A DNA stretch of 64,000 bases from Nitrosopumilus sp. (GTDB lineage Archaea; Thermoproteota; Nitrososphaeria; Nitrososphaerales; Nitrosopumilaceae): assembly GCA_965207445.1 (NCBI GenBank), contig CBDBLX010000002.1:384001-448000 (forward strand). Reading direction: 5' to 3'. Shown one piece after another: positions 16,551 through 64,000 of the stretch (positions are counted from its first letter, which is position 1; every line of letters begins with the position of its first letter). Position numbers and translations under genes: made by a program. The notes below the pieces were generated by a model. It was not told the DNA's origin. It saw only the letters and a list, made by a program, of their open reading frames with translations, and ran no database searches.

Positions 16551-18671
16551 CTAGTTTGACTTTTTCCACACAAATTGGTTGTATATCATCTCTGGTCTGA
16601 GCTGTCTGAATTCGTGACCTCCGCCATCATACCATTTGGTAAAGAATTCGTACAGATGTAATCTAAGTGACTGTATGTATACGATCAACCCCTCGATCAT
16701 CATTATGCCTATATTTCCACCTATTATCATAGCCCATGCACCTATTGACTCTGCACCACCAAGTGAGTAAAACGCATTATTCACCGTAAGTAATAGCGCA
16801 GCATGCACTAGCAACATAATTCCTATACGCGCATAACTGATTGTATGCGCTAGACTCTCTACTGTCTTTCCTAAAAATACTTCCATTATGACATTAGCAG
16901 CAGAGCCACCTTCTTCTGGATGTTTCTTTGCATGCAATATACCACCTATCATCATTATTGTCATGGATGCAATTACAGTCACGACTGCTATTCTAGTTAC
17001 GATCCAGACCTGTGCCCACTCACCTAGAAATATAGTAACCCACGGTACGGGCTCTGTATGTGTTCTAGAGTACATGTTCATTACATCGTACTGTGAGCCA
17101 ATTGCACACATCATTATCACAACAATTCCGCCATACAAAGTAATGTTTGGTAGTGCTTCCATGTATAACGCAATCTTTTTTCCTTCACGTGCAAGTTTCT
17201 TGATGCGCAGGATCATTGCCCACAACAGATGAACTATCCCTATGAACAAAGACACCTTGAGTATATCAATTACCTGCTCAAATGTTAATTCTGCTACTGA
17301 TATAACACCTACAATCCAACTGACCGGATACAATATGCCACCTTCTGCTAGCATGCCTGATAACGGTGCCATTACTGCAATGTGATGTCCGAACACCTCA
17401 CCTGTCCCAACACCTGCAATTGCTGATGCCGCCCCTGATATGGCAAGCAACATGCCCCATCTTGTTAGGTTACCTTGCCCTTTCATCTTAAATAAGAGTC
17501 CCATTCCCATCAATAGCAGACCGTGTCCAAGATCTGCGAACATGATCCCATAAAATATAGGCCACATTAATGCAATCATCGGGGTAGGATCTGCCTCACC
17601 CTTTTTTGGAATTCCTTGACTGTTTGTAATGGTCTCAAATGTCCTTATAAATCTCTTATTATCATATAATGTCGGTGCATCTTTGAGTAGTTTTGCATCT
17701 GTTATATCCTCTACAATTGCTGTCCATCTGTCTGCAATCTTTTTGAACTTTGACTCCATCTTGGCAGGTATATAGCCCTGAATAAGTGCAAAATGTTTTG
17801 TGCCAGCAGGCTTTCTGAGCGTCTCTAGCATATCTTTTGCAACCTTTGCCTCCTCATGTAGCGCTAGTATGTCTCTCCTTGATTCTTTTACAATCTTGGC
17901 AATTGCCTTTGAATTTACTTTTTGTTTTTCTGTAATCTCTTTGATCTTAGATTCAGTCAATGCATATGCTTTTGATGGTATTTGCGGCATTCCTTCTGGG
18001 ATGGTAAATGGATTTGAATTAAAACTACGAAATGTCTTGAGTATGGTTTCAGTGTCATTTGTGCTACCAAATACCAGCACTGCTGCTGCCTTTTCTTTTT
18101 TACCACCCGATGCTAACTCGTATCTATACAGTGTAGTTGCAGTACCATCAAGTGATCTTGATATCTCTTCATAGTCTGCTGAATTAATCACAAAGAGGTT
18201 TGTGTAAAAGTACTTCATCATTCCGAATCCTGACAGATCAATGTCAAGATTTTTTGCAACTTCAATGGTGTCTTTTAGTGTTGTATACTCGTCTAGTGCG
18301 CGCTTTGTATCTACTTGCTCTTCTAATAGGCGCGCCGCATATGCTATCTTGTTTGGTGCCTCTTCTTTGAGGTGGCTTACCATCTGTTCAATCTCGTCTA
18401 ACTCGTAATCTTTCTTTTTTATGACGGTTCCCTTGAAGAGTATCTCAAGCATACCTACTGTGAGTGGTATACCTAGACCCTTTACAATATCATCTATTGA
18501 TTGGTATGTCTTTTGAGCATCTAATAACAAGTCGTCTATCTCTGGTGTTACGACATCGTACTCACTGTTGATTTTGTGAAACCACTCAAATTCGGCAAGA
18601 CGTGATATGGCCGCTGGAGATTCACTCCTTGGCAGTATTACGCTTCCTAGCTTTAACTCTGCTAGCCCCAA
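16551..18671 (-). CDS. atpI: A/V-type ATP synthase subunit I (a)
   Basis: DPTP, GIMFADLGHG, HTISYARI, IQSLRLHLYEFFTKWY. Confidence 0.95.
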   Translation of the reverse strand: MGLAELKLGSVILPRSESPAAISRLAEFEWFHKINSEYDVVTPEIDDLLLDAQKTYQSIDDIVKGLGIPLTVGMLEILFKGTVIKKKDYELDEIEQMVSHLKEEAPNKIAYAARLLEEQVDTKRALDEYTTLKDTIEVAKNLDIDLSGFGMMKYFYTNLFVINSADYEEISRSLDGTATTLYRYELASGGKKEKAAAVLVFGSTNDTETILKTFRSFNSNPFTIPEGMPQIPSKAYALTESKIKEITEKQKVNSKAIAKIVKESRRDILALHEEAKVAKDMLETLRKPAGTKHFALIQGYIPAKMESKFKKIADRWTAIVEDITDAKLLKDAPTLYDNKRFIRTFETITNSQGIPKKGEADPTPMIALMWPIFYGIMFADLGHGLLLMGMGLLFKMKGQGNLTRWGMLLAISGAASAIAGVGTGEVFGHHIAVMAPLSGMLAEGGILYPVSWIVGVISVAELTFEQVIDILKVSLFIGIVHLLWAMILRIKKLAREGKKIALYMEALPNITLYGGIVVIMMCAIGSQYDVMNMYSRTHTEPVPWVTIFLGEWAQVWIVTRIAVVTVIASMTIMMIGGILHAKKHPEEGGSAANVIMEVFLGKTVESLAHTISYARIGIMLLVHAALLLTVNNAFYSLGGAESIGAWAMIIGGNIGIMMIEGLIVYIQSLRLHLYEFFTKWYDGGGHEFRQLRPEMIYNQFVWKKSN

Positions 18672-47943: not shown

Positions 47944-48017
47944 GGGTCTATGGCGCAGCCAGGTAGCGCACAGGACTCTTAATCCTGCTGTCGTGGGTTC
48001 GAATCCCTCTAGACCCG
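47944..48017 (+). tRNA. tRNA-Lys(CTT)
   Basis: Acceptor GGGTCTA/TAGACCC, D arm GCGC/GCGC, anticodon arm CAGGA-CTCTTAA-TCCTG, T loop TTCGAAT; no intron, CCA not encoded. Confidence 0.97.
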
Positions 48018-48573
48018 CTAATTTATCTATTCATATAGAATTAGTGATTGGATTGTGCCACATACAACAAACATGTATGTATTCGTATGGGGTGAATGGA
48101 GGTTGGTGTGTAATTCATCAAATCGCCACCTGCATCGTGCTTGCAGTCATCTGGAAATATCGCCAGAGTTTTATATGTATAAATTAAATTATTCAATAAT
48201 CTCATAGAAGGGTCACAGGCAGGCTAATGTCAATTACGCACCAATCTCGCATATCTACACTGCATAATGGCACATTGTATAGGTTAAACACAAATATGGA
48301 GATATGTGTATGTACTCACAAAATGCCAAGGCGTCTCCCACACCATGTTTTGCGCGTACACTTTGTAGGCTTGGAAGCACGGCCTGCTTATGGCTTGTTG
48401 TAGGCGTGACTTGACACCCCCCGCTGGCATCATATCTTGAGGCAGACAGTCTTCCTGTCCAGTTTACAGAACATTTGAGTGGCTTTGAATCGTGTAACGT
48501 AGGTTGCGCGGCTCAGACCACATGGCCACGACCCCAGAGGAGTATAAATTTACGAGTTATGCAACACGCTAGA
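48002..48573 (+). repeat. ~570-bp direct repeat, copy 1 (begins inside the tRNA 3' end)
   Basis: Matches 52837-53407 with about a dozen substitutions and one indel. Confidence 0.95.
48098..48248. mobile_element. ~150-bp MITE derived from the family B IS (second copy ~52933-53083)
   Basis: Left and right ends of 59480-61175 joined together. Confidence 0.85.
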
Positions 48574-48834: not shown

Positions 48835-49464
48835 TTAGAGGGCCGATGCCACTTTCATCAGATCTGACAATGTATAGGCAGTCGAGATCAGTTCTATTTG
48901 GATCCTGCCGTCATGGAAGATCAGTTTTGATGTCATTCCGTGTTCGGGATCCCCGTCCACGCCAATGGCGTCAAAACCGTTTACCACTACACTCTGTGTG
49001 TAAGGCCGTTCCTTCAGGAAGTCTACGCGCCACTTTTCAATGTTGAAGCCATCGCGCTCTTTGTCATACAATATGATGATCCCGTGAGAGTCCATCACGT
49101 CTGCAAATGTCTCGAGTTTGTTGTAGTCTATGGATTCCGGCCCGTAGATCACCGCTGCCAGACTGGCCCTTTCTGATCCCGTTCCCCTGGTCATCAACGC
49201 CTTGACTTCCAGACCGGCTGGAAGCAGTGTGGATTCCGTTACCTTGTAACCCGCCTTTACGGACAGTGCCTCGACGTTTGGATATGCATCCCCGTAGTTT
49301 CCCAGCTTGTAGGAGTACGGCATCTTGGCGGCTGCAAGCGACTCGGAATACTTTCCAAGATACGGCAAGTCTTGCGTTTGCTGCGAGTCCTGCATCCAAA
49401 CAAGCCCGATGCCAGCAATCCCGACTGAGACTACCAGCGCCGCAATCGTGGCTTTTTTCAGCAA
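48835..49464 (-). CDS. Cassette 1 partner: single-TM protein with DUF4367-like extracellular domain
   Basis: TTG start overlaps the upstream stop; LLPAGLEV, VVVNGFDA and LSDLMKVASAL patterns. Confidence 0.7.
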   Translation of the reverse strand: MLKKATIAALVVSVGIAGIGLVWMQDSQQTQDLPYLGKYSESLAAAKMPYSYKLGNYGDAYPNVEALSVKAGYKVTESTLLPAGLEVKALMTRGTGSERASLAAVIYGPESIDYNKLETFADVMDSHGIIILYDKERDGFNIEKWRVDFLKERPYTQSVVVNGFDAIGVDGDPEHGMTSKLIFHDGRIQIELISTAYTLSDLMKVASAL

Positions 49465-50183
49465 GTCTCTGACCCTCCTATACCGACCTTGATGTTCTTG
49501 TAGGCGGGCGTGCACTGGGTTATGAACGCGTCGTTTTCTTCGTGTTCGATATCGTTGTCCGTCCAGTAGCTCCACCTAGAACCGTCATGCCACTGTATGT
49601 ATCTCACGTCTGTTTTGGGGACCGACGTATCATCGTCCTTGGATTCTACTCCAGTGATTACGTTCCCATAGTCATAGCTCATGATTAGGCCGGCGCGTCG
49701 GGCACCGTCTGCATATGCCAGCCACTTTTCGTCCTTGTTTGTGTCTGATATCTCGTAGTATATGTTGTCAGACGGGCTGACAGAACCGGTCAATCTGTAT
49801 TCATAATAGCGCCCATCTTGCTGATATGCCAGATAGTGAAATTCATCTGAGTTGTGACATGTTCCGTTTACGTTGCCCGATACGACTCCGATTTCTATCC
49901 ACTCGTCGTTGGGAAAGACAACCCAAGTAGCTACCAGTGAGAACCCTACACCGTTTGGCGAGCATGAATCTGATACTGTTATGTCGGGAACAGTCACTCT
50001 TGCTTTGACGCCTGATATCGGAGATGAGTCCGTACTGTGGAGTTCTTGGGTTCCAATGCAGTGTGCTTCCCACCACCCACTCGTGCAGTCTTCAGTAGAA
50101 GCCGAGCTGGCCGAAGGGATCAATGCCACCCCCAACAGGATTGGAAGCACAGTCAAGATTGTTTTGGTATGTTTTGCAATCAT
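49458..50183 (-). CDS. Cassette 1 secreted protein, neprosin-like (putative glutamic peptidase)
   Basis: Signal peptide; SGVKARVTV, EWIEIG and TGVES motifs; six Cys. Confidence 0.6.
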   Translation of the reverse strand: MIAKHTKTILTVLPILLGVALIPSASSASTEDCTSGWWEAHCIGTQELHSTDSSPISGVKARVTVPDITVSDSCSPNGVGFSLVATWVVFPNDEWIEIGVVSGNVNGTCHNSDEFHYLAYQQDGRYYEYRLTGSVSPSDNIYYEISDTNKDEKWLAYADGARRAGLIMSYDYGNVITGVESKDDDTSVPKTDVRYIQWHDGSRWSYWTDNDIEHEENDAFITQCTPAYKNIKVGIGGSETC

Positions 50184-50204: not shown

Positions 50205-50243
50205 TTATATAAGGCGGCATATCCAAATATGGAGTGCCTTTTG
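50205..50243 (-). promoter_or_regulatory. Shared cassette promoter 1
   Basis: CAAAAGGCACTCC-N18-TTATATAA. Confidence 0.8.
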
Positions 50244-50683
50244 GCCGCGGATTCAGGCATGCAATACGGCAGCCACGGTATGTACTGGCAACTGGGCCGG
50301 GGCCGTACGGCACTGATCTGTCGATAGCTTTCATATGACATGGTAGGATCTATCCCGCTTCTTCCAACACTTTTTCCAGAGAAGAGATACTGGCATACGG
50401 AACGTGTTGAAAATGACTAGATTCTGTAGCTTTTCTGTCCGGTGGGCCTCGGAATGGTCGGACACTAGATCACCAGCAACAGCAATAGCAACAATAGGTT
50501 CATGGCAGCCATCAGAAACGGTATCACGGGAGCAGCTACTATTACCAGCCGTCCTGCCTTTGCGCCTATCTTCCACACGGGGGCACCGGCGGCCGGACTG
50601 TGGGCGATCCAAACTGGATGGCGGTAAACGTGCAAAGATAACAAAGATTTCTTTGTCACCTTTGTACTTGCCAAACCCGCGGC

Positions 50684-50722
50684 CAAAAGGCATTCCAGAT
50701 CAGGATAGGCCTCATTATATAA
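50684..50722 (+). promoter_or_regulatory. Shared cassette promoter 2
   Basis: CAAAAGGCATTCC-N18-TTATATAA. Confidence 0.8.
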
Positions 50723-50743
50723 TGCAAAGTGTGAGGGTGTACA

Positions 50744-51765
50744 ATGAATGCAAAACGAGCAAAGACATCTTGTTTGCTTCCTTGATCGTCGCAGTGGTTA
50801 TTCCACTTTCAACGATGGGCGCAGTGGATGCAAAACAGTCTGAAGACAAAATACCTGACGATAAACTGATCCCAAGAGATCCTGCAAAATGGGTTTTACA
50901 ATACGAGAATAAGCAGAAATTTGATGGGTATGAAAACGCTATCAAGATATACGTCGAATCTGCACAAAAAGACAACAAGTGGAATCAGGTAATGGCCAAA
51001 GAACACATACGATTGCACAACCTAGACACCAAAGTAGGCGAGATCGGCGCGGGACTACAAGCAGTGTTGGTGGACGTTGAGCATCAACAGAACCTAGGAG
51101 TATATGATCCTACCGAGGCTGAGAGAAGATACCACCAATGGGCTTTCGAACTATACCCAAACCCAACAATGCACCCAGAGATCAAGAATGTCTGGCTAGA
51201 ACAGATAGTAAAGTCACACAACAGCATAGCAAATCATGGAAACGTGCCGTCTGAACTCTCATTACGAGACCCCGAGTTTTGGATAATGACTGCAAATGAA
51301 TCAATGTGTCAATACGTTGATTGCACACAAGATATTCCAGACTCAGATCCAATCACGAATTTTGTACAAAAATACATAATTCCAAACGCACATGCATACA
51401 AAGTCAACACGTGGCACATTATGAATGGCTACATCTACACACACAGTTGTGAGGGCCAAACCGGAGGATGTATGTTCACTTTGGATACAAAAAGCGGCGT
51501 AGGCACACTGAGTTCTAGCAAGACAACTGCAAGATCTTACGATTCTGACGCAATAGTATATGCCTCAAACTGTTCACCATACTACACTACAGCGCACAAC
51601 ACACTCGATGGTGACTTGACAAGCGGTGTGCAGGAATGGTCATGGAACGACAGCAGCGATACAAGTTGCGCGGTAATATATGAGATACAAGAGATAGCGC
51701 AAAACCCACATGCGTCATTTTTTGCGACTTGGACTATTGAATCAGAGACTACTATAGAAAATTGA
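50744..51765 (+). CDS. Cassette 2 secreted precursor (family X); probable 1-nt deletion near codon 8
   Basis: Signal peptide ILFASLIVAVVIPLSTMGAVDA; homologous to 57754-59046; internal IIPNAHA. Confidence 0.7.
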
Positions 51766-52331
51766 ACCTCTCTCCCACTCTTTTTGTTGTTACCAAGAAA
51801 TATGAGTTATTGCCACTTGGCATGTTTGTCTTTGCGGTTTTGTTTTTAATAAGTTACAACACACTTGACACGTACTTTACAGTCACCGTTCCACTGCAAC
51901 ATGCAGTCCAGCTGGATTATGTCGGAGAGTACCACTATGATCCGACGGACGACCCGCAGTCAGACATTGGTACGGTCACTCACGTAAAGGCGATAGGTGA
52001 AGATTACATAGAGGTTCAGTTTACAGATAATGATTTTTTTGTAGGTTCGTATAGAATACCGGAATTTGTACATACCGAAACCATAAGAAAGGGAGACGTG
52101 TTCGTAGAGACATGCCTAAACTTTGATTCCGGTGTGAGTCTGGGGCTTTTGACGTATATGGGCGTCGAAGAATATGACGGAAAAGATCACTACAAGTTCT
52201 TTCGTACGAGCGCAGACACGGACAAGGAGCTACAATGCAAATATCCTCAAGTCATCATAGAAAGCCTGAAGATTGACTTGGACATTACAATACCACAAGG
52301 CAAGATCCTCACTATCGTACTTGAAGAGTAG
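51762..52331 (+). CDS. Cassette 2 partner: single-TM protein with a two-Cys extracellular domain
   Basis: 4-nt overlap with the upstream stop; N-terminal TM helix. Confidence 0.75.
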   Translation: MNLSPTLFVVTKKYELLPLGMFVFAVLFLISYNTLDTYFTVTVPLQHAVQLDYVGEYHYDPTDDPQSDIGTVTHVKAIGEDYIEVQFTDNDFFVGSYRIPEFVHTETIRKGDVFVETCLNFDSGVSLGLLTYMGVEEYDGKDHYKFFRTSADTDKELQCKYPQVIIESLKIDLDITIPQGKILTIVLEE

Positions 52332-52836
52332 AAAGATTTTTCCAGTGCGCTGGAATGTATCCTACAAATTCTAGCTGGAAATTAGTGACAATCTAGTGTC
52401 AACGACGTATAATTCTGGGTTTTCACTTTGGCGTTCCTAGTTCTCCATACCTAGATTCTCACTCTATCGCACCTGTTTCTCAGGTGTGCCTAGAATACCG
52501 TAGATCATTCTGCAGTGGAAACGGCAGCACGGCGGCAGCAGACCGCGGCGGCTATCCTCAAAGAATCATAGAGCTTGTTGATTCTTTCCGGATATTATAT
52601 AGTCGGTGGTGGTGTGGGGCGTACCTGCATAGCAGACTGCTTGTTTTCAGTTTGAACGCTGCCGGCAACAACTGCCCTCCGCGCACTGTGTCCTCAATCC
52701 TGCTAGTTTGTCCTGCCTAACCACAACCGGTTCTGCCCGTTCCAGATTCCATATTCTTATTAGCTGGGTATTTGCTACCATATCACATGCAGGGTTCGAA
52801 TCCCCTAAAATCAGGACACTCCTGTTCTAGCTGGCT

Positions 52837-53407
52837 AATCCCTCTAGATTCGCTAATTTATCTATTCATATAGAATTAGTGATTGGATTGTGCCACATAC
52901 AACAAACATGTATGTATTCGTATGAGGTGAATGGAGGTTGGTGCGTAATTCATCAAATCGCCACCTGCATCGTGCTTGCAGTCATCTGGAAATATCGCCA
53001 GAGTTTTATATATATAAATTAAATTATTCAATAATCTCATAGAAGGGTCACAGGCAGGCTAATGTCAATTACGCACCAATCTCGCATATCTACACTGCAT
53101 AATGGCACATTGTATAGGTTAAACACAAATATGGAGATACGTGTATGTACTCACAAAATGCCAAGGCGTCTCCCACGCCATGTTTTGCGCGTACACTTTG
53201 TAGGCTTGGAAGCACGGCTTGCTTATGGCTTGTTGTAGGCGTGACTTGACACACCCGCTGGCATCATATCTTGAGGCAGACAGTCTTCTTGTCCAGTTTA
53301 CAGAACATTTGAGTGGCTTTGAATCGTGTAACGTAGGTTGCGCGGCTCAGACCACATGGCCATGACCCCAGAGGAGTATAAATTTACGAATTATGCAACA
53401 CGCTAGA
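52837..53407 (+). repeat. ~570-bp direct repeat, copy 2 (attR-like tRNA 3' fragment)
   Basis: Starts aatccctctagattcgcta, versus tRNA aatccctctagacccgcta. Confidence 0.95.
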
Positions 53408-53408
53408 A

Positions 53409-53592
53409 AATTGCGCAACGATTCATAAAGACAAGAATGATGCGTCCAGAATTGCGCAACGATTCATAAAGACAAGAATGATGCGTCGTTATTATAGTCA
53501 CTGCCGTCCATGCGAACGGCAGCGCGTATTTTGCCTATCGTTGTTTAGAACGATAGCGCGCATTTGGAACTGCCGTCCATGCGAACGGCAGT
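53409..53592. repeat. Iteron-like block: two 38-bp direct repeats plus three spaced palindromes
   Basis: Direct repeats at 53409-53446 and 53450-53487; CTGCCGT-N8-ACGGCAG twice, flanking CTATCGT-N8-ACGATAG. Confidence 0.85.
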
Positions 53593-53716
53593 GTGTATAA
53601 TACCTTATGCACCCCGGAGTCTCAATTTAAGCATTCTGATCCGCAGTCCGGTGTAGGTGCGCACCCACCACGTCCCGTCTTTTCGGCTACGCGGCGCACG
53701 TCTTGTAAGCGACATG

Positions 53717-53990
53717 CTATTCCGCCATCTTGTAGAGCCCGTTCGCGTTGCTCATCACGGGGTCGCCCGGGACTACCACCTTGAACTCCTTTAGCTTGGC
53801 GGCCAGCCTCTCCTGCATGCCGGGGATCAGCAATACCTCTCTCGAGAGCGCTACTGCATACCGGTTGCCGTACTGCCCGGACACGTCGTGTATCTCGCGG
53901 GCCAGGTTATCGGCCATTATCTTTGCGTACCTGTGGCACACGTCGTGGTTCCTGTGGAGCAGGTCCGTGTCGAGGTGGGCGTACCTGCCT
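53717..53990 (-). pseudogene. C-terminal remnant of an actin-like (ParM/StbA/MreB-type) ATPase
   Basis: AVALS(REV)LLIPGM...VVVPGDPVMSNANGLYKMA matches the adenosine and connect-2 regions; GC-rich and 5'-truncated. Confidence 0.6.
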
Positions 53991-54217
53991 ATCTTTCTAT
54001 ATAAACACTGATTAACTGTGTTTTCAAGAGAACATCCTTGCAGTCTTTAATAAATAATAAGAAAGTGCCATCAAGACTCAATTGCATTGATGGCTCTACG
54101 TATAATGGCTTTAATATCTGGGTCTGATATCTCAGCCTCACATTGACGTAACCCCGTTGTATCGTACATATAATACAAAATATGCCCACTTTTTTAAACA
54201 TTACTAAAACCCTATGT

Positions 54218-54505
54218 ATGGATGAAGGTTTAATGAACTCTGTAAAATATGCATATAAAGAAGTTCTCAGTAATTTAGAAATAGCTAACATAGATCTAAT
54301 GAATGCAGAATCTGATAAACTTGGTGCAGAACAGACATTAGACAAGGCAAAAGATAACTATCATAACGCCGAAGTTGAACTTGAGCAGGCAAAAACAACC
54401 CTTGAATCATGTAAAACCCGTGTTAATGAATTAACAGAATGTAGTGATAATTTACGTATAGTAATTGACAATTTACGTATAGTAATTGACAATAATAATA
54501 ACTAA
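54218..54505 (+). CDS. Small coiled-coil hypothetical protein
   Basis: Heptad pattern; 21-bp tandem duplication (DNLRIVI twice). Confidence 0.55.
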   Translation: MDEGLMNSVKYAYKEVLSNLEIANIDLMNAESDKLGAEQTLDKAKDNYHNAEVELEQAKTTLESCKTRVNELTECSDNLRIVIDNLRIVIDNNNN

Positions 54506-54680
54506 TCCATTTTTTTGAGATTACATAGGTATTCCAGACAACCTACGCACTCTTTGACATTGAGGGCACATGCACATATCAAAATATTGTGATGGATTCC
54601 ATGGGTAATGAATTATCAAGCGATTAATACCAAGCTACCATAAAGTAACGGCATGATTTACAACTCATCTTTACATTGCA

Positions 54681-54789
54681 TACTGATACGATTAAAGATC
54701 CGATATTTTGATTGATATTCATCTCAAAGTTGAGCACATATTATGAATACAAAATATTAGAAAACTATCGGATCTTTAATGAAACTATT
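54681..54789 (+). mobile_element. 109-bp MITE family A, copy 4
   Basis: Flanks ttgca/atgca. Confidence 0.9.
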
Positions 54790-54944
54790 ATGCACATACT
54801 GACAACGGTCCGTATGCCGGGAGCAGGACTGCTCAACGTTCTTGTGCCCGCGTTCATTCCTGCCTGGATGCAGCAGGTCGGATAAAACAGATGCGGTAGC
54901 AGGCGGGGTCCCAGTTACTATATACGAAGCCCCATATACCATGA

Positions 54945-55145
54945 TCAGTCAACGCTGCAGTTAGGCATAGAGTGTAGTTTTGGACTTGACAATCCCCGAT
55001 GAACGGGATCAAACCCCATGATGCACATGTATAAATCCGAAAACGGATCCTGCGGGTTCCTATATGCGTACATGGGTATTATCACAACCAGTACGATCAA
55101 GAGGCCGACTACAATTACACTAATCCTGAAAAACAACTTGTCCAT
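54945..55145 (-). CDS. Cassette 3 partner: 66-aa single-TM protein with two Cys
   Basis: TM helix ISVIVVGLLIVLVVIIPMY; directly downstream of the protease. Confidence 0.6.
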   Translation of the reverse strand: MDKLFFRISVIVVGLLIVLVVIIPMYAYRNPQDPFSDLYMCIMGFDPVHRGLSSPKLHSMPNCSVD

Positions 55146-55197
55146 GCTCGGTCACCATATTATTTGTATATATAAGAAAAGAGTGTCTGTTGCAGAT

Positions 55198-56457
55198 TTA
55201 GTTTAAGACTGCTGTTATGTCCATTTCGTCGGCTATGTTGTCATACGCGGCGTGATAGACGCCCCACAAGTCGTGCGTGGTGAGTATCCAGTACAGGTTT
55301 CCTTTGTCTCCACTTGCAACTATTGGTCCGCCGCTGTCACCGTGTTTAAAAGCCACGTTGGATCTTACAAGATCCCGCATGATCTCTCCATCAAGAAGAT
55401 TCAGTACCGTAACGTGTAGCGCGGAGATTGTCCCAAAGGTTACGCCACTGGCCTGTCCTGACTTCATTATCGTGTCGTTTTGCTGTTGGGCCTGAGATGT
55501 CGTGTTTGTGACCCTGTGGAGTCCGCCGCCGTACACCATGTCGTTTGTTGTATTTGAACTGCTGGTGACTATCCACGCGCAATCACAATAGGTTCCGCGA
55601 TAATATTTTTCCACAGACACGGTGCCTATGTTGCTTCCTCGAGCATTGCGTACGTCTTCTCCCACTTGACTTTCTGCGCAGTGGCCCGCGGTTATCCAAC
55701 CCCATGTTGTGCCTTTTTTGGCCTTAAAGCCAAAACTGCATCTTTCTACATCCCTCTTGGGATCCGCGCTGTCTATCTCGATGTAGTTCCCGCCTATTAT
55801 CGGCGCGCATATTCGTTGCGTGCACGATGCCGTTTCCGCCGGGGTGGAGTATACCGCGTGCCAGGGAGCACCCGGTGGCATCATATCCTCGAGATCACTT
55901 ACAATGTACCTGATGTTGGTGGAATTTACCGTGGCGTTGTTCAGCCACACCTGGATTTCTTGACTGTCGATGTCTATCCTGATGCTGGTGACAAACCAAA
56001 GCGTTGTGGAGTTGAACAGTCTGAGTTCGAATGCATCCTGCTGCGCAATCAGTTGCGAAAGCCCCTCTTCTGGGATGTCTCGTTCGTGGTTTTTCTCCTC
56101 TATTGCCCTGATTTCAGACTCTATCTCACTTACGCGCGTATGATTTGTCTGATCTCCTGCGTCAGCCCCATGGGAACTGCCCAGTTTTTCTGCTTCCCTG
56201 TACAGTTTCCCAAGCCTCTCTGATATTTTTGCGCGTTCCAGCTTCTCCCGCATTCGCTCTTCAGTCTTGTCTCTGGGATGCGTCTCGTCTATGTCCCGAT
56301 CCGTGATCTTTTCTGCGTCCGGGTGCAAAAGTTCATCTAGCAGCGTTGCCGCATCCTCTTCTCCCGCGGCGTCTTCAATAATGCCTGCCGCTACAAGTGA
56401 CGCCAAGGTGACGTCCACCGGCAGCGCGACTGTGATTGTTTCTGGTTTGGCTTGCAT
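55198..56457 (-). CDS. Cassette 3 secreted S1 (chymotrypsin-like) serine protease with long prodomain
   Basis: Triad motifs ITAGHC, CDCAW, GDSGGP. Confidence 0.88.
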   Translation of the reverse strand: MQAKPETITVALPVDVTLASLVAAGIIEDAAGEEDAATLLDELLHPDAEKITDRDIDETHPRDKTEERMREKLERAKISERLGKLYREAEKLGSSHGADAGDQTNHTRVSEIESEIRAIEEKNHERDIPEEGLSQLIAQQDAFELRLFNSTTLWFVTSIRIDIDSQEIQVWLNNATVNSTNIRYIVSDLEDMMPPGAPWHAVYSTPAETASCTQRICAPIIGGNYIEIDSADPKRDVERCSFGFKAKKGTTWGWITAGHCAESQVGEDVRNARGSNIGTVSVEKYYRGTYCDCAWIVTSSSNTTNDMVYGGGLHRVTNTTSQAQQQNDTIMKSGQASGVTFGTISALHVTVLNLLDGEIMRDLVRSNVAFKHGDSGGPIVASGDKGNLYWILTTHDLWGVYHAAYDNIADEMDITAVLN

Positions 56458-56484
56458 GTTATTACTATGGGTCCGTAGCTTTTG

Positions 56485-56523
56485 TTATATTGCGATTGAT
56501 TCTGATTTGCGGTATGTCTTTTG
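56485..56523 (-). promoter_or_regulatory. Shared cassette promoter 3
   Basis: CAAAAGACATACC-N18-CAATATAA. Confidence 0.72.
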
Positions 56524-56794
56524 TGATTTCGGGTTCGAAACATCGAACCCCATCACTACTTTTTATGTGAGCTTTTTAGGGAGTTACTCCAAATGCCTAA
56601 TTTTTAATTAATTAGTCTCTGAGTGAGAGCAGCTTGGCTGAGGGTTGCTTTTTGAACAACTGTAATTTGATACGTCCTCTATATGCCAGATCGTATGAGG
56701 TCTGTTTTTTTTTGGAGATGCGTTGTTTTTGTGGCAATGAATTTGTTTCGGTGCCAGTGGGTTCTTGTACAAACACGTCGACATAGTTGGCGCG

Positions 56795-57283
56795 CTAATC
56801 CAGCAGGCATGTGTCATACCCATAAAGATCAGACAGATTGGTAGACTGAATGTCTGGTTTGGGATATCGATCTGGAGCAGAAAGACATGAAATTGTTCTG
56901 TAAACAAAGCCCTCTTTATGCTGCAGATCCAGCTCGAGGCGATTGCCATGTATGTCATGCTGGGATACAGTCAGCACGGTGGATCCGTCAATTGCCACTC
57001 TAAATTCGTCAGTAGAGTTTGGGTACATTGATTTGAATTTTTTGTAAACGGGGCTCTTTTGCAGTTCAGTGTATCCTTTAATCTCCGGGGATTCGTCAAG
57101 CATTGCGTTCTTAACTGCAAAATACAGCGTCTTCATCCTGTCACCCGCACTCGTCCCGGGTATCTGGTTTGGCAGCGATTCAAGGTATGTGACTGCAAGT
57201 GTTGTTATTATTATGGCCGCCGCACCCATACACAAAAGCACGGTCCTTGACCGGATAGGGAAGACATGCGCGGCGCTCAACAT
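56795..57283 (-). CDS. Cassette 4 partner B (paralog of partner A)
   Basis: TM helix, then ESLPNQ, YFAVK, PVYKKFKSMYP, GYDTCL. Confidence 0.8.
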   Translation of the reverse strand: MLSAAHVFPIRSRTVLLCMGAAAIIITTLAVTYLESLPNQIPGTSAGDRMKTLYFAVKNAMLDESPEIKGYTELQKSPVYKKFKSMYPNSTDEFRVAIDGSTVLTVSQHDIHGNRLELDLQHKEGFVYRTISCLSAPDRYPKPDIQSTNLSDLYGYDTCLLD

Positions 57284-57757
57284 TCAGTCCTCTAGACACT
57301 CATTATAACCAATAAAATCAAATGCCGCCTCAAATGGAACCCCTGTGGGGTGAGGCAGGGTATTGTTAGTCGTGCAGTGTACCGCATAAACAAACGGAGG
57401 ACGATTGTCATCTTTCATCATCTCCAAGGTAATGTGGTTGCCGCGGCCGTCGTACTCTGTTACGCGCAGTATCGGGGTGCCGCTTACTGTAGTTTCGAAT
57501 TCCTCAGTAGAGTCGGGGTACGCCGACTTGAACTCTGTATAGATCGGGTGGCTTGTGAATGCGTTGTACTGTTGTATGCCCTCGTGCTCTTCGAATGCGG
57601 ATTTTTTGATTGCAAAATATGCGTTTTGGAATCTGCCACTCATATCTGTGCCTGTCGTTTGGTTTGGTATTGATTCAAAGTACGTAAATCCAATTATCAC
57701 TACGGCGCCCACACATGTGAATGTTACTAACCTCTTGGTAGAAAAAAAGGGATTCAT
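57284..57757 (-). CDS. Cassette 4 partner A: single-TM protein
   Basis: ATGA overlap with the precursor stop; ESIPNQ, YFAIK, PIYTEFKSAYP, GYNECL. Confidence 0.8.
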   Translation of the reverse strand: MNPFFSTKRLVTFTCVGAVVIIGFTYFESIPNQTTGTDMSGRFQNAYFAIKKSAFEEHEGIQQYNAFTSHPIYTEFKSAYPDSTEEFETTVSGTPILRVTEYDGRGNHITLEMMKDDNRPPFVYAVHCTTNNTLPHPTGVPFEAAFDFIGYNECLED

Positions 57758-59046
57758 GGTATCCACGAATTTGTAATTCCGCGCAGATACCACACATAGT
57801 GGGGATCGTCTCTGTCACTTGCTTGTACTGTCGTATCGACCTTTGCACATCCGTTACCCGATGCGGTAAAATACACCGGCTGAGACGTGGTTTGAAATTT
57901 GGCTACTGCGCTGTTGTATGCGTGTGCACTGGAGCATGTCATTACATAGATGCGCATGTCGTTGCTCGTTCCGTGACCGGCGCCTGCGGCACCTTCGAGG
58001 TCCGGCGGAGTGGCAAGTACGTTATGTTCTCCCACGCTCCAAGGCTCGTCTTCTTGAACTTTGCATGTGCCGTACGTGCACGTGTAAGGCTCACCGTAGA
58101 CTATGGTATAGTGATAAGTCTCACTCCATGCAAATGCTTTTGGCAAAAGGATTGACAACCAATCAGATGCTACGTCCGGGGGCTGGATGGAATCTTTTTT
58201 GTACGACTCTGTATCCAAGATCTCTTGAAGGGATGTGACATTGCATCCCTGGCTGTACCCGCACGAGGAGATGCTCGCTACGAGAATCCAGTAGTCAGAA
58301 TCGTGCTCAAGCAACTCATCGGGCACGTTTCCGTGAAGCGCAAGCATGTTAAACACGCCTGCCAAATCGGGTGCAAACCCGATAAAGTCGGGTTCTGATA
58401 TGATCTCAGTGAGCCTCTGATCAATCTCTTCTACTGAGTCAGGGGCCGGGTATTTTTCAGCCAGCCAGCCGTGAAACCTCTTGACAGGCTCTGTGTGGTT
58501 GTACTGATCCAGCAGTTTTTGCTTTGCAGCAACTAGTGATGTAATTTCATGCCCAAATCCCGTCTTTTCGATTATCGTGTCAAAGTTGTGAATCTTTGTG
58601 TATGCCAAGACCATTGCTTTGTTCCAACCGTTATCGGGCATTTCTGCTATTGTGTATGTCATTAGAGCGAGCATCATCTCTCTGAATTCTCGCGGGCTTG
58701 AAAACTGGGTTTCCCATTTCTCTCCATATCGTTCGATCAGCTTGTCGTCGTAAATGTCTCCTTCATTCAGCGTAGTTTGCCTCAGATCCGACAGGTCTTG
58801 TTGGTATTTTGCCAAGACGGCTGCATTTTGAGCGGCCTGCGGCGGATCTTCTTCCTGAGTCTTTGTTTTATTGTCTTTGTCTTGTACGTCTGCAACAGTT
58901 TCTTTGTCCACGGTGGCGTTTCTCACATCTGCAATGGAAGCATCATCATCTCCAAATGACGCACCCCTCATGCCAGCTAAAAGCACGATTGCTGTCGACA
59001 GTGCCGCAATCAATATTGTTTTTGTTTGATATGTTTTTTTACGCAT
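57754..59046 (-). CDS. Cassette 4 secreted precursor (family X)
   Basis: Signal peptide; DDKLI, DNGWN, HNFDT, HGNVPDEL; internal LLPKAFA; four-Cys C-terminal domain. Confidence 0.82.
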   Translation of the reverse strand: MRKKTYQTKTILIAALSTAIVLLAGMRGASFGDDDASIADVRNATVDKETVADVQDKDNKTKTQEEDPPQAAQNAAVLAKYQQDLSDLRQTTLNEGDIYDDKLIERYGEKWETQFSSPREFREMMLALMTYTIAEMPDNGWNKAMVLAYTKIHNFDTIIEKTGFGHEITSLVAAKQKLLDQYNHTEPVKRFHGWLAEKYPAPDSVEEIDQRLTEIISEPDFIGFAPDLAGVFNMLALHGNVPDELLEHDSDYWILVASISSCGYSQGCNVTSLQEILDTESYKKDSIQPPDVASDWLSILLPKAFAWSETYHYTIVYGEPYTCTYGTCKVQEDEPWSVGEHNVLATPPDLEGAAGAGHGTSNDMRIYVMTCSSAHAYNSAVAKFQTTSQPVYFTASGNGCAKVDTTVQASDRDDPHYVWYLRGITNSWIP

Positions 59047-59073
59047 ATTATTACTGCGGTGTAGGTACGTTTG

Positions 59074-59112
59074 TTATATAACAACTATGATGGGGTTACG
59101 GTATGCCTTTTG
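59074..59112 (-). promoter_or_regulatory. Shared cassette promoter 4
   Basis: CAAAAGGCATACC-N18-TTATATAA. Confidence 0.8.
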
Positions 59113-59479
59113 CGAATGACTCGGCGACAATGAAACGCGCGTCTTCATATAGCCTAAACCCGCAGAGGAGAATTTAAAAAATGTCTGATTATTTCCGGAT
59201 ATTCTTATGATCGTGCTTTGGCGCTCTTATAATCGAATAACTGGGCATTCCACACCGTTGCGGCGTGATGGCCTCACAAGGGCCGCGGACATGTTGCATG
59301 TCGCAGGCAACGGAACCGATCCGGCACGGGACGGGCATAAACTTGGGAACGCGGTGCGCAGTCCAGCGCGCCGCGGCTACATCTGCGCAGGCGCAGATAT
59401 TTGACATATATGGAGGCCGCGTCACAAATCCTCGTTGGAATATGATCCACAGACATACGGCAACCTGATGGCCTACAAG

Positions 59480-61175
59480 GGAGGTTGGTGCGTAATTCAT
59501 CAAATCGCCACCTACATCGTACTTGCAAAATCATCTACAAATATCGCCAGAGTTTTATATGTATAAATTAAATTAATTAATAAACTCATATATAAAAATA
59601 TCTGCGCGCATATCAAAAGTTACTTATAGGGACATCTCAATTGAATAATTGTGATACGAACAAAGGGGATGTTAAACAGCGTCGACTAGCCAATGTTATC
59701 AACGTATCGTTTGTAAAGTGTGGTGGAATGACGACATATGTGGGGTAGGTTGCCACAACATACTATGCTACACAGAGAATGACGCCCATTATAATGCATG
59801 GCTTGTGATGAATGTGGCGTCTGTTTATTGTTTGTGTAAATTTAGTGTGTGGGTTTCAAATAAGAATAGATTATGGAGGCAGACAGTACAGTGACAGAGT
59901 AGCAGCACAAGCGACACGAAGGTTATTGGCTGTATTACGAACAGACATGCAAATTTGAGCAGGGTTTTATGCGCAAGACATGGATGTCGGCGATACGAAA
60001 AAATTCACATCCGTACAAGGAAAAGAAGACAAATAGAGGAGGATGCGAGCCTGTACACTTGCGTGGCAAGATGGATTTTTTGTGCCTTTAAAAAGTTGCA
60101 AAAAATATTCCTTTTCGTGACGTGATAAATGATCTTGGACATATGCAGGATGAGCAAGTTGACGAGCCGGAGCCTGATTAGTTGGGTAACAAAACATGTG
60201 CAAACAATTGATCTCGACTGGTTTGATTCTATTTTGGCATATGCTGCCAATATGTGTCTAAATAAACTTGAAAAATCAGGGACAAATCCGGTACCGATAA
60301 AAGGTAAAGAGTTCATATTTACGCACGGATCCGAGGATTTTGAGGGCGGTAAACAAGACGTAAAAAAAGAACCTACAGGTACGATTGGGATAGACAGTAG
60401 TGTCGGGGGCAGAAAGACTGACAGATACGAAAAACAACAAAGACCAAATCATTTACTACACGACTTAACTGACACGCATCAAGACGTACCTAAAATATCA
60501 TATTATTTGATAAGCGGACACCAGATCATACTTGCATCATACACAACTCCACGCAATGCAAGTGTCACATCAATGCTTCCATATGTGGTCAACTTTCTCG
60601 TAAAAACTATACACAGATTGAAAAACGCTTATTCAACGGAGACAAGAGATACATTCGGATCAAAACTGTGAGACAATATTTGATGCAAACATGAAACCGA
60701 ACATAAAACAGCGCAATCATACAGCAGGTCATACAAACCGTGGTAAACCACCAAGCAGAAAAAAGGTAGCAGAAATCTTTGACAAAGATGCATACAAACA
60801 ACGCGCATTTATCGAGGCAATTTGGAGCAGTAGAAGAGACAAAGAATCACAGGCTACACTGTCGTATGCGCCTGGCCAAAAACAGAAAGCGGTTTGGTAA
60901 AATACTATCGATTGCATGGAATATCAACGTCCTGAACAGATTTATCTGCGCTCATAAAAAAGGGCAAAAGATTCCATCATACAAATTAGTGACTGCTATC
61001 ACACTTACACGTTTCATGTTCTATAACCTGTCTGCCAAAACAACACACATGTATATTCAAAAACAAAACACACTATAGATAGATTTCAGTCTTTTGTAGA
61101 TTAAATGTGCAATAAACCGAATAAGTTCACAGACGGGTCACAGGCAGTCCAAATGTCAATTACGCACCAACCTCC
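59480..61175 (+). mobile_element. Family B insertion sequence (IS5/IS4-like DDE) with degraded transposase
   Basis: 18-bp TIR GGAGGTTGGTGCGTAATT; IGIDSS, GDKRY and YKQRAFIEAI motifs spread over several frames with stops. Confidence 0.85.
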
Positions 61176-61213
61176 CTGCTCGCTCGTTGACTACACACGT
61201 GCCTCAATTTGAG

Positions 61214-61459
61214 TTATACATCTCTTACAACCTCGCGTTTAGCTAACTGCTCCCACGCACCAATGTTGTCTTCGCAGTTGTACGATTTGTATTTTTGAAG
61301 AGTTTCGCGAGTATTCTCACCCTCAATTGCCAAATCGATCATTTCATCATATGTTTCGGCGCAAATTGATAATGTTTCTGTATATGCTTGATTGAATATT
61401 AACAATGCACTAAGAATAATTATGCCTGCGATTATTGAAACTATGAAAGGAGTCTTCAT
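61214..61459 (-). CDS. Cassette 5 partner: 81-aa single-TM/signal protein with two Cys
   Basis: MKTPFIVSIIAGIIILSALLIF; downstream of the protease. Confidence 0.65.
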   Translation of the reverse strand: MKTPFIVSIIAGIIILSALLIFNQAYTETLSICAETYDEMIDLAIEGENTRETLQKYKSYNCEDNIGAWEQLAKREVVRDV

Positions 61460-61707
61460 AATACCACAACTGATAAGCCATGTATAGTTAGGACATGCCT
61501 AGTGGGGACTACGTCGTACTCGCATGATGTCGATCCCAGGTAGTTTGATAGGCGTTGTACAAGCATACTTGATCCAATTGCGGCACACCTCATATGCAGA
61601 CGCCTCAGACGTGGAACCTGCAAACCGTGCCTGCCTCTGGACGTGAGCCCGAGGTGGGAACTAGGTGTATATTCCATGAGTAAAAATGAATTAGGGAGCA
61701 AACTCAT
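61456..61707 (-). CDS. Doubtful ORF linking the protease and its partner
   Basis: ATGA overlaps at both ends, but atypical amino-acid composition. Confidence 0.25.
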   Translation of the reverse strand: MSLLPNSFLLMEYTPSSHLGLTSRGRHGLQVPRLRRLHMRCAAIGSSMLVQRLSNYLGSTSCEYDVVPTRHVLTIHGLSVVVL

Positions 61708-62904
61708 CTCAATGGTCCCAAGCCGGTTGTTGAATCATTGATATTTTCCCAAGGTGTGTAGTAGCTTGCAGATGAGGATGTTGTCTTGTTCATTCCATGG
61801 AAATTGTCTTCTGCCGAATTCGTAACGGCGCCTCCACTGTCGCCACGGTCCATTACATCAGTAGTGGTGGAAACTACATCGAACCAAATTCCATCGATGT
61901 AGACTCTACTTTCTGGATCGTCTACTATGCCATAATCAAGATTACTCGTCGCTCCGTGGATGACTATGTTAGCTCCGGCAGCTGAGCGATCAGTAAAGCC
62001 GGTTATCGTTGTCCAATCATTAGTGTTACTCCATACCGCCCGTTCGCTGTCATCCTCACTGCTTTGCTCCACCCAGGCGCAGTCGCATTCTGCTTGGTAC
62101 AAGTCAATTTCTACGTCTCCAACCTTGTTCCACCCTAGCCAGTCCTCGGTTGGCTGGAAAACATCGTCGCCGGAACCACTGGCGTCATCCACACAATGGC
62201 CGGCAGTGATGAATCCATCAACGCCGTTACGTTCCATAGGCAGTCCTATGGTACAGTACGAATGATTTTTGGACTCCATCTTAATTCCGCCAATGAGGGG
62301 GGTTACAGTTGGAATTAGGATGGGTGCAAGACGCATCAACTATAGTGTCGAACTTTACCTGTACTGATAGATCCGCATATCTGCGCTCAATTATGTCTGT
62401 GTAATATGTCTCATTTTTTTCGACAGTAATTTGACTTGCGTCAACAGTAACTACCAAGGCGTGATGAAGGCCGCTAACAGATACACCGATTAATGGCAAA
62501 TTGGATCCCACCACATCGTCTTGTGCGACACGTAGCTTTTGTTCTAATGCAGATTCAATTTTGTACCTTTCTATTCTTTCCTGTTCCATTTGATCTAGAA
62601 TGTTTTCATAATTTACAACGTCCTGTTTTAATTTTTCAATCTTTGATTGCAATTTAGCAATTTCTGCTGACGTTCTATTGCCGTCACTAATCATCGATTG
62701 GAGTTGTTTTTGGAATTCCTTCAATTCGCTCTTTGCAAATGAATATGGCTCCATCACTTCCCTCAACTTTTGAACTTTTGCTAATGCCTTGTTATCGTCT
62801 TGATCGGGTACTGCGCTAATTTGCGTTATGGAAACTGAGAGGATTATTGCAGATGACGATACTACAACCAATGCAATTTGTGTCGTTTTTGAAGTATTTT
62901 TCAT
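61704..62904 (-). pseudogene. Cassette 5 secreted S1 serine protease, frameshifted at a G6 run (62297-62302)
   Basis: Signal and coiled-coil prodomain in one frame; PLIGG, ITAGHC, CDCAW and GDSGG in the next; removing one base fuses them. Confidence 0.85.
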
Positions 62905-62933
62905 GCTGTTGCCACTACATGTGCGCCCCCGTG

Positions 62934-62968
62934 TTATATAAGCACGTATATTAAAATCTGGAGTGCCT
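62934..62968 (-). promoter_or_regulatory. Shared cassette promoter 5, interrupted by a MITE
   Basis: AGGCACTCC-N18-TTATATAA; CCAAAAAGGCA continues on the far side of the MITE. Confidence 0.75.
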
Positions 62969-63077
62969 AATAATTTCATTAAAGATCAGATAGTTTTCTA
63001 ATATTTTGTATTCATAATATGTGCTCAACTTCGAGATGAATATCAATCAAAATATCGGATCTTTAATCATATCAGTA
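62969..63077 (-). mobile_element. 109-bp MITE family A, copy 5
   Basis: Perfect 5-bp TSD tgcct. Confidence 0.92.
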
Positions 63078-63329
63078 TGCCTTTTTGGAAGATAGGATCC
63101 AGATCCGCGACTCGGAGGCATAGGAGTGACCCGACAGGCAGCAAGCGGAGTCGCTGTGACGTAATGCGTAGCAGACGCATTTGGAGACGCGCCGCAGCCT
63201 CCACATGACAAATCTCGCGCGCGGACGGACGCGCCGTGCCCCCATCGAGGCCAGCGTCGACAAATAACCAACGGGAGGATGACCACTGCGGCGACAATAT
63301 TTTGGCCTGCGAGCACCTGCCGCCCTCAA

Positions 63330-63638: not shown

Positions 63639-63639
63639 G

Positions 63640-64000
63640 GAGGTTGGTGCGTAATTGACATTAGTCCTGTCTGTGACCCGTCTGTGAACTTGGTTTATTG
63701 CACATTCAATCTACAAAAGACTGAAATCTATCTATAGTGTGTTTTGTTTTTGAATATACATGTGTGTTGTTTTGGCAGACATAGATTATAGAGCATGAAA
63801 CGTGCAAGTGTGATAGCAGTAGATATCATTTGTATGATGGAATCTTTTGCCCTTTTTATGAGCGCAGATAAATCTGTTCAGGACGTTGATATTCCATGTA
63901 ATCGACAATATTTTACCAAACCGCTTTCTGTTTTTGGCCAGAGGCGCATACAACAGTGTAGCCTGTGATTCTTTGTCTCTTCTTCTGCTCCAAATTGCCT
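63640..64000 (-). mobile_element. Right end of another family B IS (runs off the window)
   Basis: Begins ggaggttggtgcgtaatt; reverse-complement match to ~60815-61175. Confidence 0.88.

Follow-up and report, generated by a model that had tools for sequence, protein, structure and literature searches.

A box set 18 nt before the TATA promoters of secreted-protein cassettes in a Nitrosopumilus genome, and a winged-helix protein that may read it

In promoters controlled by TFB-RF1 in Pyrococcus and EarA in Methanococcus, and at the ara-box of Sulfolobus, an activator site lies upstream of a weak B recognition element (BRE) (PMC5937170 and PMC5512572, the latter reporting the ara-box second-hand; these and the other papers below are cited for part of their content). 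Here we describe a comparable element in a 64,000-nucleotide (nt) stretch of a 2.6-Mb Nitrosopumilus genome (hereafter the window; contig C2:384001-448000), in which five cassettes for exported proteins share a box placed before a TATA box. In its placement the box resembles those activator sites, as here too a conserved box stands at a fixed distance upstream of a weak BRE and a TATA box, yet it is distinct from the TFB-RF1, EarA and ara-box elements: its sequence is different and non-palindromic (the TFB-RF1 palindrome TCTG-N5-CAGA, as given in the cited part of PMC5937170, is not matched), it ends 14–18 nt before the TATA box, it has about 20 targets in one functional class, and its candidate factor matches no Pfam, NCBIfam or PADLOC family and is tied to a kinase and a receiver. 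What is new here is the presence of the box at the start of an unannotated winged-helix gene, with receiver and kinase, across the Nitrosopumilaceae. We propose, with a probability of roughly 0.6, that this winged-helix protein binds the box and activates the secreted-protein genes.

Bacterial secretion regulons such as those of the PlcR box and the hrp box are defined by a single box, into which acquired genes plug. Here, likewise, one box precedes many unrelated exported proteins, but the promoter is an archaeal TATA promoter that is itself copied as a module, and the putative regulon is known from sequence and carries no claim of a role in host damage. Polymorphic toxin–immunity cassettes combine a shared 5′ end, a variable exported payload, a small gene behind it and many broken copies. 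The cassettes described here have the same arrangement, with toxicity and immunity putative only; no conserved N-terminal delivery domain was found in them, the shared DNA ending at about codon 7 and proteins of different families failing to align. Nor is there an integron-type or att boundary, because transferred tracts extend past the box. No description of the box, the regulator or the gene cluster was found in the literature covered, which left aside supplements and most subscription journals. Proteases and transposases of sponge-associated archaea are treated by Moeller et al., Haber et al. and PMC6697440; the words ‘promoter’ and ‘two-component’ are absent from the parts of the first two cited here.

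The box spans about 16 bp, AAAAGRCAYDCCRSAW, with conservation extending four bases beyond a 12-mer, as RGAT in type A and GCAA in type B. The sharing of this box by the five cassettes, 18 nt before the TATA box, was claimed in an earlier note on this DNA and is upheld: four intact 12-mers AAAAGRCAYWCC lie at the positions below, each separated by 18 nt from a downstream TTATATAA (for cassette 3, CAATATAA), and the fifth box is interrupted.

50231..50242, minus strand: box 1, type A
50205..50212, minus strand: TATA box 1, palindromic TTATATAA; ATG 21 nt behind
50685..50696, plus strand: box 2
50715..50722, plus strand: TATA box 2
56511..56522, minus strand: box 3, type B, nearest to the form at regulator starts
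56485..56492, minus strand: TATA box 3, CAATATAA; ATG 27 nt behind
59100..59111, minus strand: box 4, type B
59074..59081, minus strand: TATA box 4; ATG 27 nt behind
62960..63085, minus strand: box 5, interrupted by a miniature element
62934..62941, minus strand: TATA box 5; ATG 29 nt behind
62969..63077: miniature inverted-repeat element of 109 nt, with a 5-bp target duplication (direct repeats)

The note had reconstructed the fifth box across the miniature element, and a joint that skips 114 nt (62963 to 63078) does occur in contigs from three of four runs, all of one sample. Because this joint is found in reads, an uninterrupted allele of the cassette 5 box exists, and the polymorphic copy of the element, present in some cells only, is possibly a natural off-switch. 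The genome holds 64 near-full copies of the element, which prefers TGCAT-like 5-bp targets and has another copy in the window at 54678-54795; among the 64 copies examined, that in cassette 5 is the only one to hide a box. Box matches with at most one mismatch number 11 in the window, against 2.41 ± 1.66 in 100 shuffles. That the motif does not precede core genes of the window holds for the composite of box, 18 nt and TATA box, but not for the bare 12-mer, one copy of which (18503-18514, minus strand) lies by the A-ATPase I gene.

Across the genome, the exact 12-mer has 20 matches, 15 with a TATA box at 18 nt and five without, and this strict pattern (box-N18-TATA) was absent from each of ten shuffles. 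The spacing is non-random, as had been supposed: a box matrix gives 17–19 TATA partners at 18 nt and at most one at any other spacing from 8 to 30. Searching with half a box gave 21 matches for the left half plus TATA (about 0.8 expected, an estimate from 1501 TATA words) and 19 for the right half, all but one of them already known sites. The genome thus has 21 distinct sites, a set from which one assembly duplicate was removed and to which one site from the half-box search was added; in one further copy of the module the left half of the box is worn. The duplicate, a copy of site 44725, lies on contig C1, which largely duplicates the start of C2: a large part of the initial 120 kb of C2 recurs on it at 98–100% identity, and it is probably a strain variant.

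These sites precede exported proteins, in line with the suggested enrichment upstream of secreted genes. On open reading frame (ORF) calls that are crude, both for this count and for the TATA distances that follow, a hydrophobic N-terminus is found in 16 of the 20 box genes and in 355 of 1916 called ORFs; of the four box genes without one, two end by codon 18, one is without a start codon and one falls barely under the cut-off. Among 169 ORFs with a TATA-like word 19–27 nt before the ATG, the six with a box at one mismatch or fewer are all cassette genes, and the remaining 163 have at least three mismatches. Payloads include S1 proteases, an M10-like protease, a 1197-amino-acid (aa) Ig/cadherin-repeat protein, a neprosin-like lead and unnamed families, usually followed by a small membrane-anchored gene. 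The first ORF reaches 200 aa at 11 of the 21 sites, two of these being pro-regions alone, so a large part of the set is broken. Payload homologues occur at 22 places in the genome, 20 of which have a site (the queries were themselves site genes).

The start codon lies 21–22 nt behind the TATA box at 15 of the 20 sites with a start, and 20 or 27–29 nt behind it at the others. Of the 21 TATA boxes, 15 are perfect palindromes, and an A 11 nt behind the TATA box, kept at 19 of 21 sites, fits the archaeal -11/-10 promoter element. The position of the BRE is rich in pyrimidines, with a purine fraction of 0.28 at 20 sites against 0.58 at 162 unverified TATA-bearing ORFs and an A at -3 in none of the 20 against 42% of the 162; it is less pyrimidine-rich at type-B sites.

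Two explanations had been offered for the motif, an activator site defining an effector regulon or a shared promoter-plus-signal 5′ module onto which payloads are recombined. Over 109 promoter pairs, likeness mostly sets in at the edge of the box (median -1), and in the longest pairs with unrelated payloads it ends at about +80 to +90. The shared module is thus about 85 bp long, runs from the box to about codon 7 and takes in the promoter and only the first, charged part of the signal peptide. Within it the box stands out: among 16 type-A copies pairwise identity is 91% in the box, 59% in the spacer, 45% in the leader and 31% in the flank, and between type A and three type-B copies it is 78% in the box and 27% in the spacer (cassette 5 excluded). 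Sites were chosen by their box, which favours such a result, and the half-box test agrees with it. The two alternatives are compatible and both are supported; activation itself we infer, and a role of the products as effectors is putative.

The box also marks the start of a gene elsewhere in the genus. Among 129 other genomes of the genus, 29 contain the strict pattern (the reversed control gave one match), and the first-listed site in these 29 lies at an intact regulator start in 18, at a decayed start in one and elsewhere in ten, all ten of which encode the regulator. At regulator starts the box overlaps the start codon of an opposite-strand gene of about 280–285 aa, and in most cases a gene for a peptide of 52–55 aa lies behind the TATA box. 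The protein matches no Pfam, NCBIfam or PADLOC family, HTH_20 included, and is hypothetical where named. Its model contains a winged helix at residues 20–138 (predicted local distance difference test score, pLDDT, 86; Z 8.9, root-mean-square deviation 1.5, 62 residues aligned), for which winged-helix domains crowd the list of fold matches with no subfamily prominent, in a comparison that hardly reached beyond residue 138; Foldseek returned nothing at E ≤ 0.001. Basic residues in the predicted recognition helix are invariant. Beside the start, non-coding CC and CA are kept in 24–26 of 27 loci from many genera, even where the second codon differs (L057 and L086 are excluded from this column table, and L070, whose start is mis-set, from the matrices). 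Regulator starts of other genomes, 29 in number, were used to build a matrix; applied to the present genome, it finds 17 sites with a spacing of 18 and at most two at any other spacing. Named homologues are carried by cultured Nitrosopumilus genomes; the homologue ABX13145 lies at about 1.15 Mb and, from this position, is unlikely to be Nmar_0452/0453.

The regulator and the box have overlapping distributions. The regulator is encoded in 41 of 120 family genomes, by single-sequence and profile search alike, and in a further comparison in 40 of 95 family genomes and none of 55 from other families of the class. Of the genomes in the family sample, 10 of the 41 with the regulator and 4 of the 79 without it contain the strict pattern (Fisher p = 0.005, for genomes that are non-independent kin). 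Across the phylum the pattern is found in 4 of 45 and 0 of 255 genomes; a shorter pattern has two matches in five complete genomes and none in three Nitrosopumilus genomes. Every genome with at least three sites, among those checked, encodes the regulator. In other genera, sites away from the regulator gene precede peptide, kinase and PAS genes and secreted cassettes, and the regulator has box-driven cassettes no more than about 3 kb away in G073, G097, G105, G137, G141, G142, G204 and G214. The regulator start of G073 is one of seven near-identical cassette promoters, and a distant copy keeps the first six regulator codons, so the direction of copying is shown in that lineage; G002 has a decayed regulator at its site.

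Cassettes also appear to move between species. This genome and G105, in which a binning error is possible, share one cassette, box included, at 99.6% identity over 1653 nt, whereas their regulator–receiver loci are 65% identical; another is 99.5% identical over 2234 nt between G142 and G225, which belong to different genera. Both tracts continue beyond the box (for about 87 nt in one case and about 970 nt upstream, to the end of the locus, in the other), so the box is not the tract boundary.

Thaumarchaeal stand-alone receivers encoded beside ArsR-type genes (HTH_20, arCOG03067) were described by Galperin et al. in 2018, contact between the partners being undemonstrated (PMC5847659). The present pair likewise joins a receiver-only protein to a predicted DNA-binding protein; unlike those pairs, which in the cited part of that paper are divergent and occasional, it is convergent, near-invariantly accompanied by a kinase, about 280 aa in its DNA-binding partner and without HTH_20, and a site and targets can be proposed for it. 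The kinases and receivers considered here may appear in Table S2 of PMC5847659. Of 42 regulator loci, 40 have a receiver gene no more than 1.5 kb away and 39 a kinase gene, several of these loci being close kin or the same gene fetched twice. Receiver and regulator are convergent in the listed loci, except in L084 and L085, where they stand in tandem. The present genome has one receiver, beside the regulator (pair at C2:1320566-1321789, regulator at C2:1320962-1321789), and one HisKA kinase (C2:593633-594904, L150), directly behind the box-driven Ig-repeat gene; both are of the regulator-linked type. The kinase consists of HisKA and HATPase domains, and D59 and K110 of the receiver are invariant in 28 of 28 sequences. 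A predicted receiver–regulator complex scored 0.34 against 0.02 for the best control, with contacts agreeing at 46% or more and partner pLDDT of at least 81, and so supports contact weakly. Of 157 solved complexes 116 passed the mark used, as did 2 of 215 mismatched ones, with 18 solved and both mismatched ones at or below 0.60. Passes in the range of 0.34 are more often wrong than right unless the contact is likely beforehand.

In NarX/NarQ and McpN, G-x-x-R is the nitrate-binding motif (PMC8199190, PMC6381276). The sensor of the kinase resembles theirs, as a membrane-flanked four-helix domain with A-x-N-x-A-G-x-x-R, and differs in departing from the strict N-box and in having no HAMP match and no NarL-type partner. 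The four helices lie between two membrane helices (pLDDT 94); the top eight fold matches are NarQ and McpN (E about 1e-3 to 3e-3); and the best profile match in the PDB is McpN 6GCV (E = 2.1e-5), whereas a single-sequence PDB search with one sensor domain returned no matches. G43 and R46 of the motif are invariant in 31 of 31 sequences and aligned to the McpN nitrate site. From these models, nitrite or nitrate is a candidate signal for the kinase. Judged by coordinates, at least 15 other genomes have a homologue of the sensor next to the regulator, other homologues lie elsewhere, and some regulator-linked kinases have no NarQ/McpN-like sensor. Kinases with such sensors form a family found widely across the Nitrosopumilaceae (77 of 251 genomes at E ≤ 0.001, many of the matches weak).

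A mechanism can be proposed from what is read directly in the sequences, that is, the box, homologous to the element at regulator starts, its spacing, the target class, the shared module, the gene linkage and the folds. The box would be the binding site of a Nitrosopumilaceae-specific winged-helix protein, the output of a system of kinase, stand-alone receiver and winged-helix protein. In the ancestral layout the box would lie over the start codon of the regulator, 21 nt from a two-way TATA box, with the target gene on the other side. The bound regulator would block its own gene, in self-repression, and, standing upstream of the weak BRE of the target, could recruit TFB/TBP. In some lineages this compact promoter and the first signal-peptide codons would have been copied before many secreted payloads, and such cassettes would move between species. 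Binding, activation, self-repression, receiver contact and signal are the steps that we infer. A fuller chain would lead from nitrite or nitrate through the NarQ-like kinase to the receiver, which would switch on the separate winged-helix protein and so turn the two-way TATA box from the regulator’s own gene towards the target; in host-associated lineages the module of about 85 bp would then serve as a portable plug, through which proteases traded between genera gain density- or host-dependent control on arrival. As a whole, we regard this longer chain as doubtful.

Several observations weigh against the proposal that the winged-helix protein reads the box to activate secreted-protein genes. 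In this genome, most sites are of type A (CAC-TCC-RGAT) and score just 8–12 bits on the regulator-start matrix, and the start of its own regulator has no box (-11 bits); regulator starts of G097, G105, G130, G137, G141 and G144 are also without one, and most multi-site genomes thus have no self-site. The core box is non-palindromic, which is unusual for a dimeric winged-helix protein, and a second half-site is seen only at some regulator starts. The kinase lies 0.73 Mb from the regulator–receiver pair, and its sensor departs from the strict McpN N-box at the Q, M and final Q positions. Elsewhere, 31 of the 41 regulator-positive genomes have no strict site, two of the four regulator-negative matches (G201 and G228) look like real promoters, and G303 has the regulator and an S1 homologue but no box there. 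Boxes were found at 5 of 20 S1 loci and 0 of 9 cassette-1 loci elsewhere, some of these loci being cut short; payload homologues are thus often boxless, and payload and promoter are separable. Even in this genome, 2 of the 22 places with payload homologues have no site, and 10 of the 21 first ORFs end before 200 aa or have no start, part of the set therefore decaying.

Some of these points would suit a factor encoded elsewhere that reads the box and has the three-gene system merely as one of its targets; it might regulate globally or be a special partner of TFB/TBP. The absence of a self-site at the regulator start here and in six other multi-site or linked genomes is in keeping with this, as are the sites before kinase, PAS and 50–55-aa peptide genes and the one or two plausible sites in regulator-negative genomes. 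Box and regulator nevertheless co-occur within the same family range, and in G139, which has no regulator, the orthologue of cassette 3 has no box; we consider an unlinked factor unlikely, although other candidates were not looked for in a systematic way. Alternatively, the box might be a passenger, alike by descent alone because a strong two-way promoter was copied and the start region of the regulator went with it. On the opposite strand the box reads as a start codon and two further codons, the G073 promoter carries its six regulator codons, G002 keeps its decayed regulator, and among type-A copies spacer and leader are alike too. Against this reading, the spacer is at chance (27%) between subtypes and the box at 78%, the left half alone selects 21 sites, of which 20 are known and have the right half, and no remnant of the regulator was found opposite any site here; moreover, a boxless module tested by leave-one-out regains 15 of 16 type-A sites and adds one copy with a worn box. 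This explanation seems to us distinctly improbable. A weak match to the regulator near cassette 3 (E = 3.8) was dropped, having aligned to the middle of the protein.

A winged-helix protein that binds the box might also repress, or flip the two-way TATA box, leaving box genes on in its absence. The palindromic TATA box at 15 of the 21 sites would allow this, and at the regulator gene, where the box covers the start, the position is that of a repressor; in the cassettes, the box stands upstream of a weak BRE, where the activator site of TFB-RF1, EarA and ara-box promoters also lies (PMC5937170, PMC5512572), and we hold repression of the cassettes to be very unlikely. Least credible to us, to the point of being nearly dismissed, is that the box is an attachment site for cassette integration. 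Likeness between unrelated cassettes does start at the box edge, and cassettes move between species, but near-identical transferred tracts extend past the box, the spacing to the TATA box is exact, no second copy closes a cassette, and sites lie within 5 kb of a tRNA gene in 6 of 22 cases, no clear excess over the 15% expected.

About three quarters of thaumarchaeal response regulators are receiver-only, with output not known (PMC5847659). For one such system an output protein, a DNA site, a set of targets and a signal can now be named as candidates, all of them testable in cultured Nitrosopumilus. The system would also provide a control mechanism for the expanded secreted proteases of sponge archaea (PMC6790972, the cited part of which mainly concerns subtilisin-like and M72 enzymes, not box cassettes) and, in a group with few genetic tools, an inducible promoter of small size.

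The core genes of the window (A-ATPase, ammonium transporter, his operon and cytochrome oxidase) group with proteins named for Nitrosopumilus or Nitrosarchaeum, so the host is an archaeon that oxidises ammonia, with TATA boxes of the archaeal kind. The cassettes comprise these genes.

49458..50183, minus strand: cassette 1 gene, 241-aa exported protein; a neprosin/peptidase A4 look-alike (Atlas 0.91), a lead only
48835..49395, minus strand: cassette 1 second gene, probably membrane-anchored; frame open further upstream across a hydrophobic stretch
50744..51765, plus strand: cassette 2 gene, exported protein of a family without a name, common to cassette 4
51822..52331, plus strand: cassette 2 second gene, hydrophobic stretch at the N-terminus
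55198..56457, minus strand: cassette 3 gene, 419-aa S1 (trypsin-like) protease with a long pro-region (Pfam Trypsin, E = 7.4e-5)
54945..55145, minus strand: gene behind cassette 3, 66 aa, membrane-anchored
57754..59046, minus strand: cassette 4 gene, 430-aa exported protein of the cassette 2 family
56795..57757, minus strand: two related genes behind cassette 4, membrane-anchored, 157 and 162 aa
61704..62904, minus strand: cassette 5 gene, S1 protease in two overlapping frames, a 207-aa pro-region and a 210-aa protease part
61214..61459, minus strand: gene behind cassette 5, 81 aa, membrane-anchored

The payloads fall into three families, as the earlier note had it: the S1 proteases of cassettes 3 and 5 (27% identity over 206 aa), the family of cassettes 2 and 4 (33% over 186 aa) and cassette 1. 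His, Asp and Ser motifs are all present in the cassette 3 protease. In cassette 2, the frame from the promoter-proximal ATG ends after 13 codons and the body of the protein lies in another frame. No Pfam family was matched by the cassette 1 protein or by the product of its second gene. The family of cassettes 2 and 4 has invariant His and Cys residues and a G-x-x-P motif, with at least eight members in this genome and others in other genera. PADLOC matches on cassette 5 were dismissed as coiled-coil noise, and a plasmid search returned just two distant actinomycete proteases.

Direct repeats of about 570 nt (47944-48573 and 52837-53407), which start at the 3′ end of tRNA-Lys, bracket cassettes 1 and 2, and a weak joint skipping 4687 nt was seen in one run; the two cassettes are possibly an integrated block. 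Cassette 5 is flanked by long inverted repeats of a high-copy element (60815-61175 and 63639-64000), which could make it a composite mobile unit. In G130 (L110-L112), three box promoters precede a repeated 35-aa ORF with no long gene behind it. A second, broken copy of the winged-helix gene lies at C2:1844454-1844789. The peptide of 50–55 aa, with an EDLxGLSW-like ending, occurs behind the box beside the regulator or alone (L008:1315-1479, L127, L142, L011), in at most three copies per genome; it matches no Pfam family, was not found in this genome and is a candidate feedback inhibitor. A 558-aa ORF without a Pfam family (13615-15291) lies in a G+C-rich stretch amid the core genes of the window.

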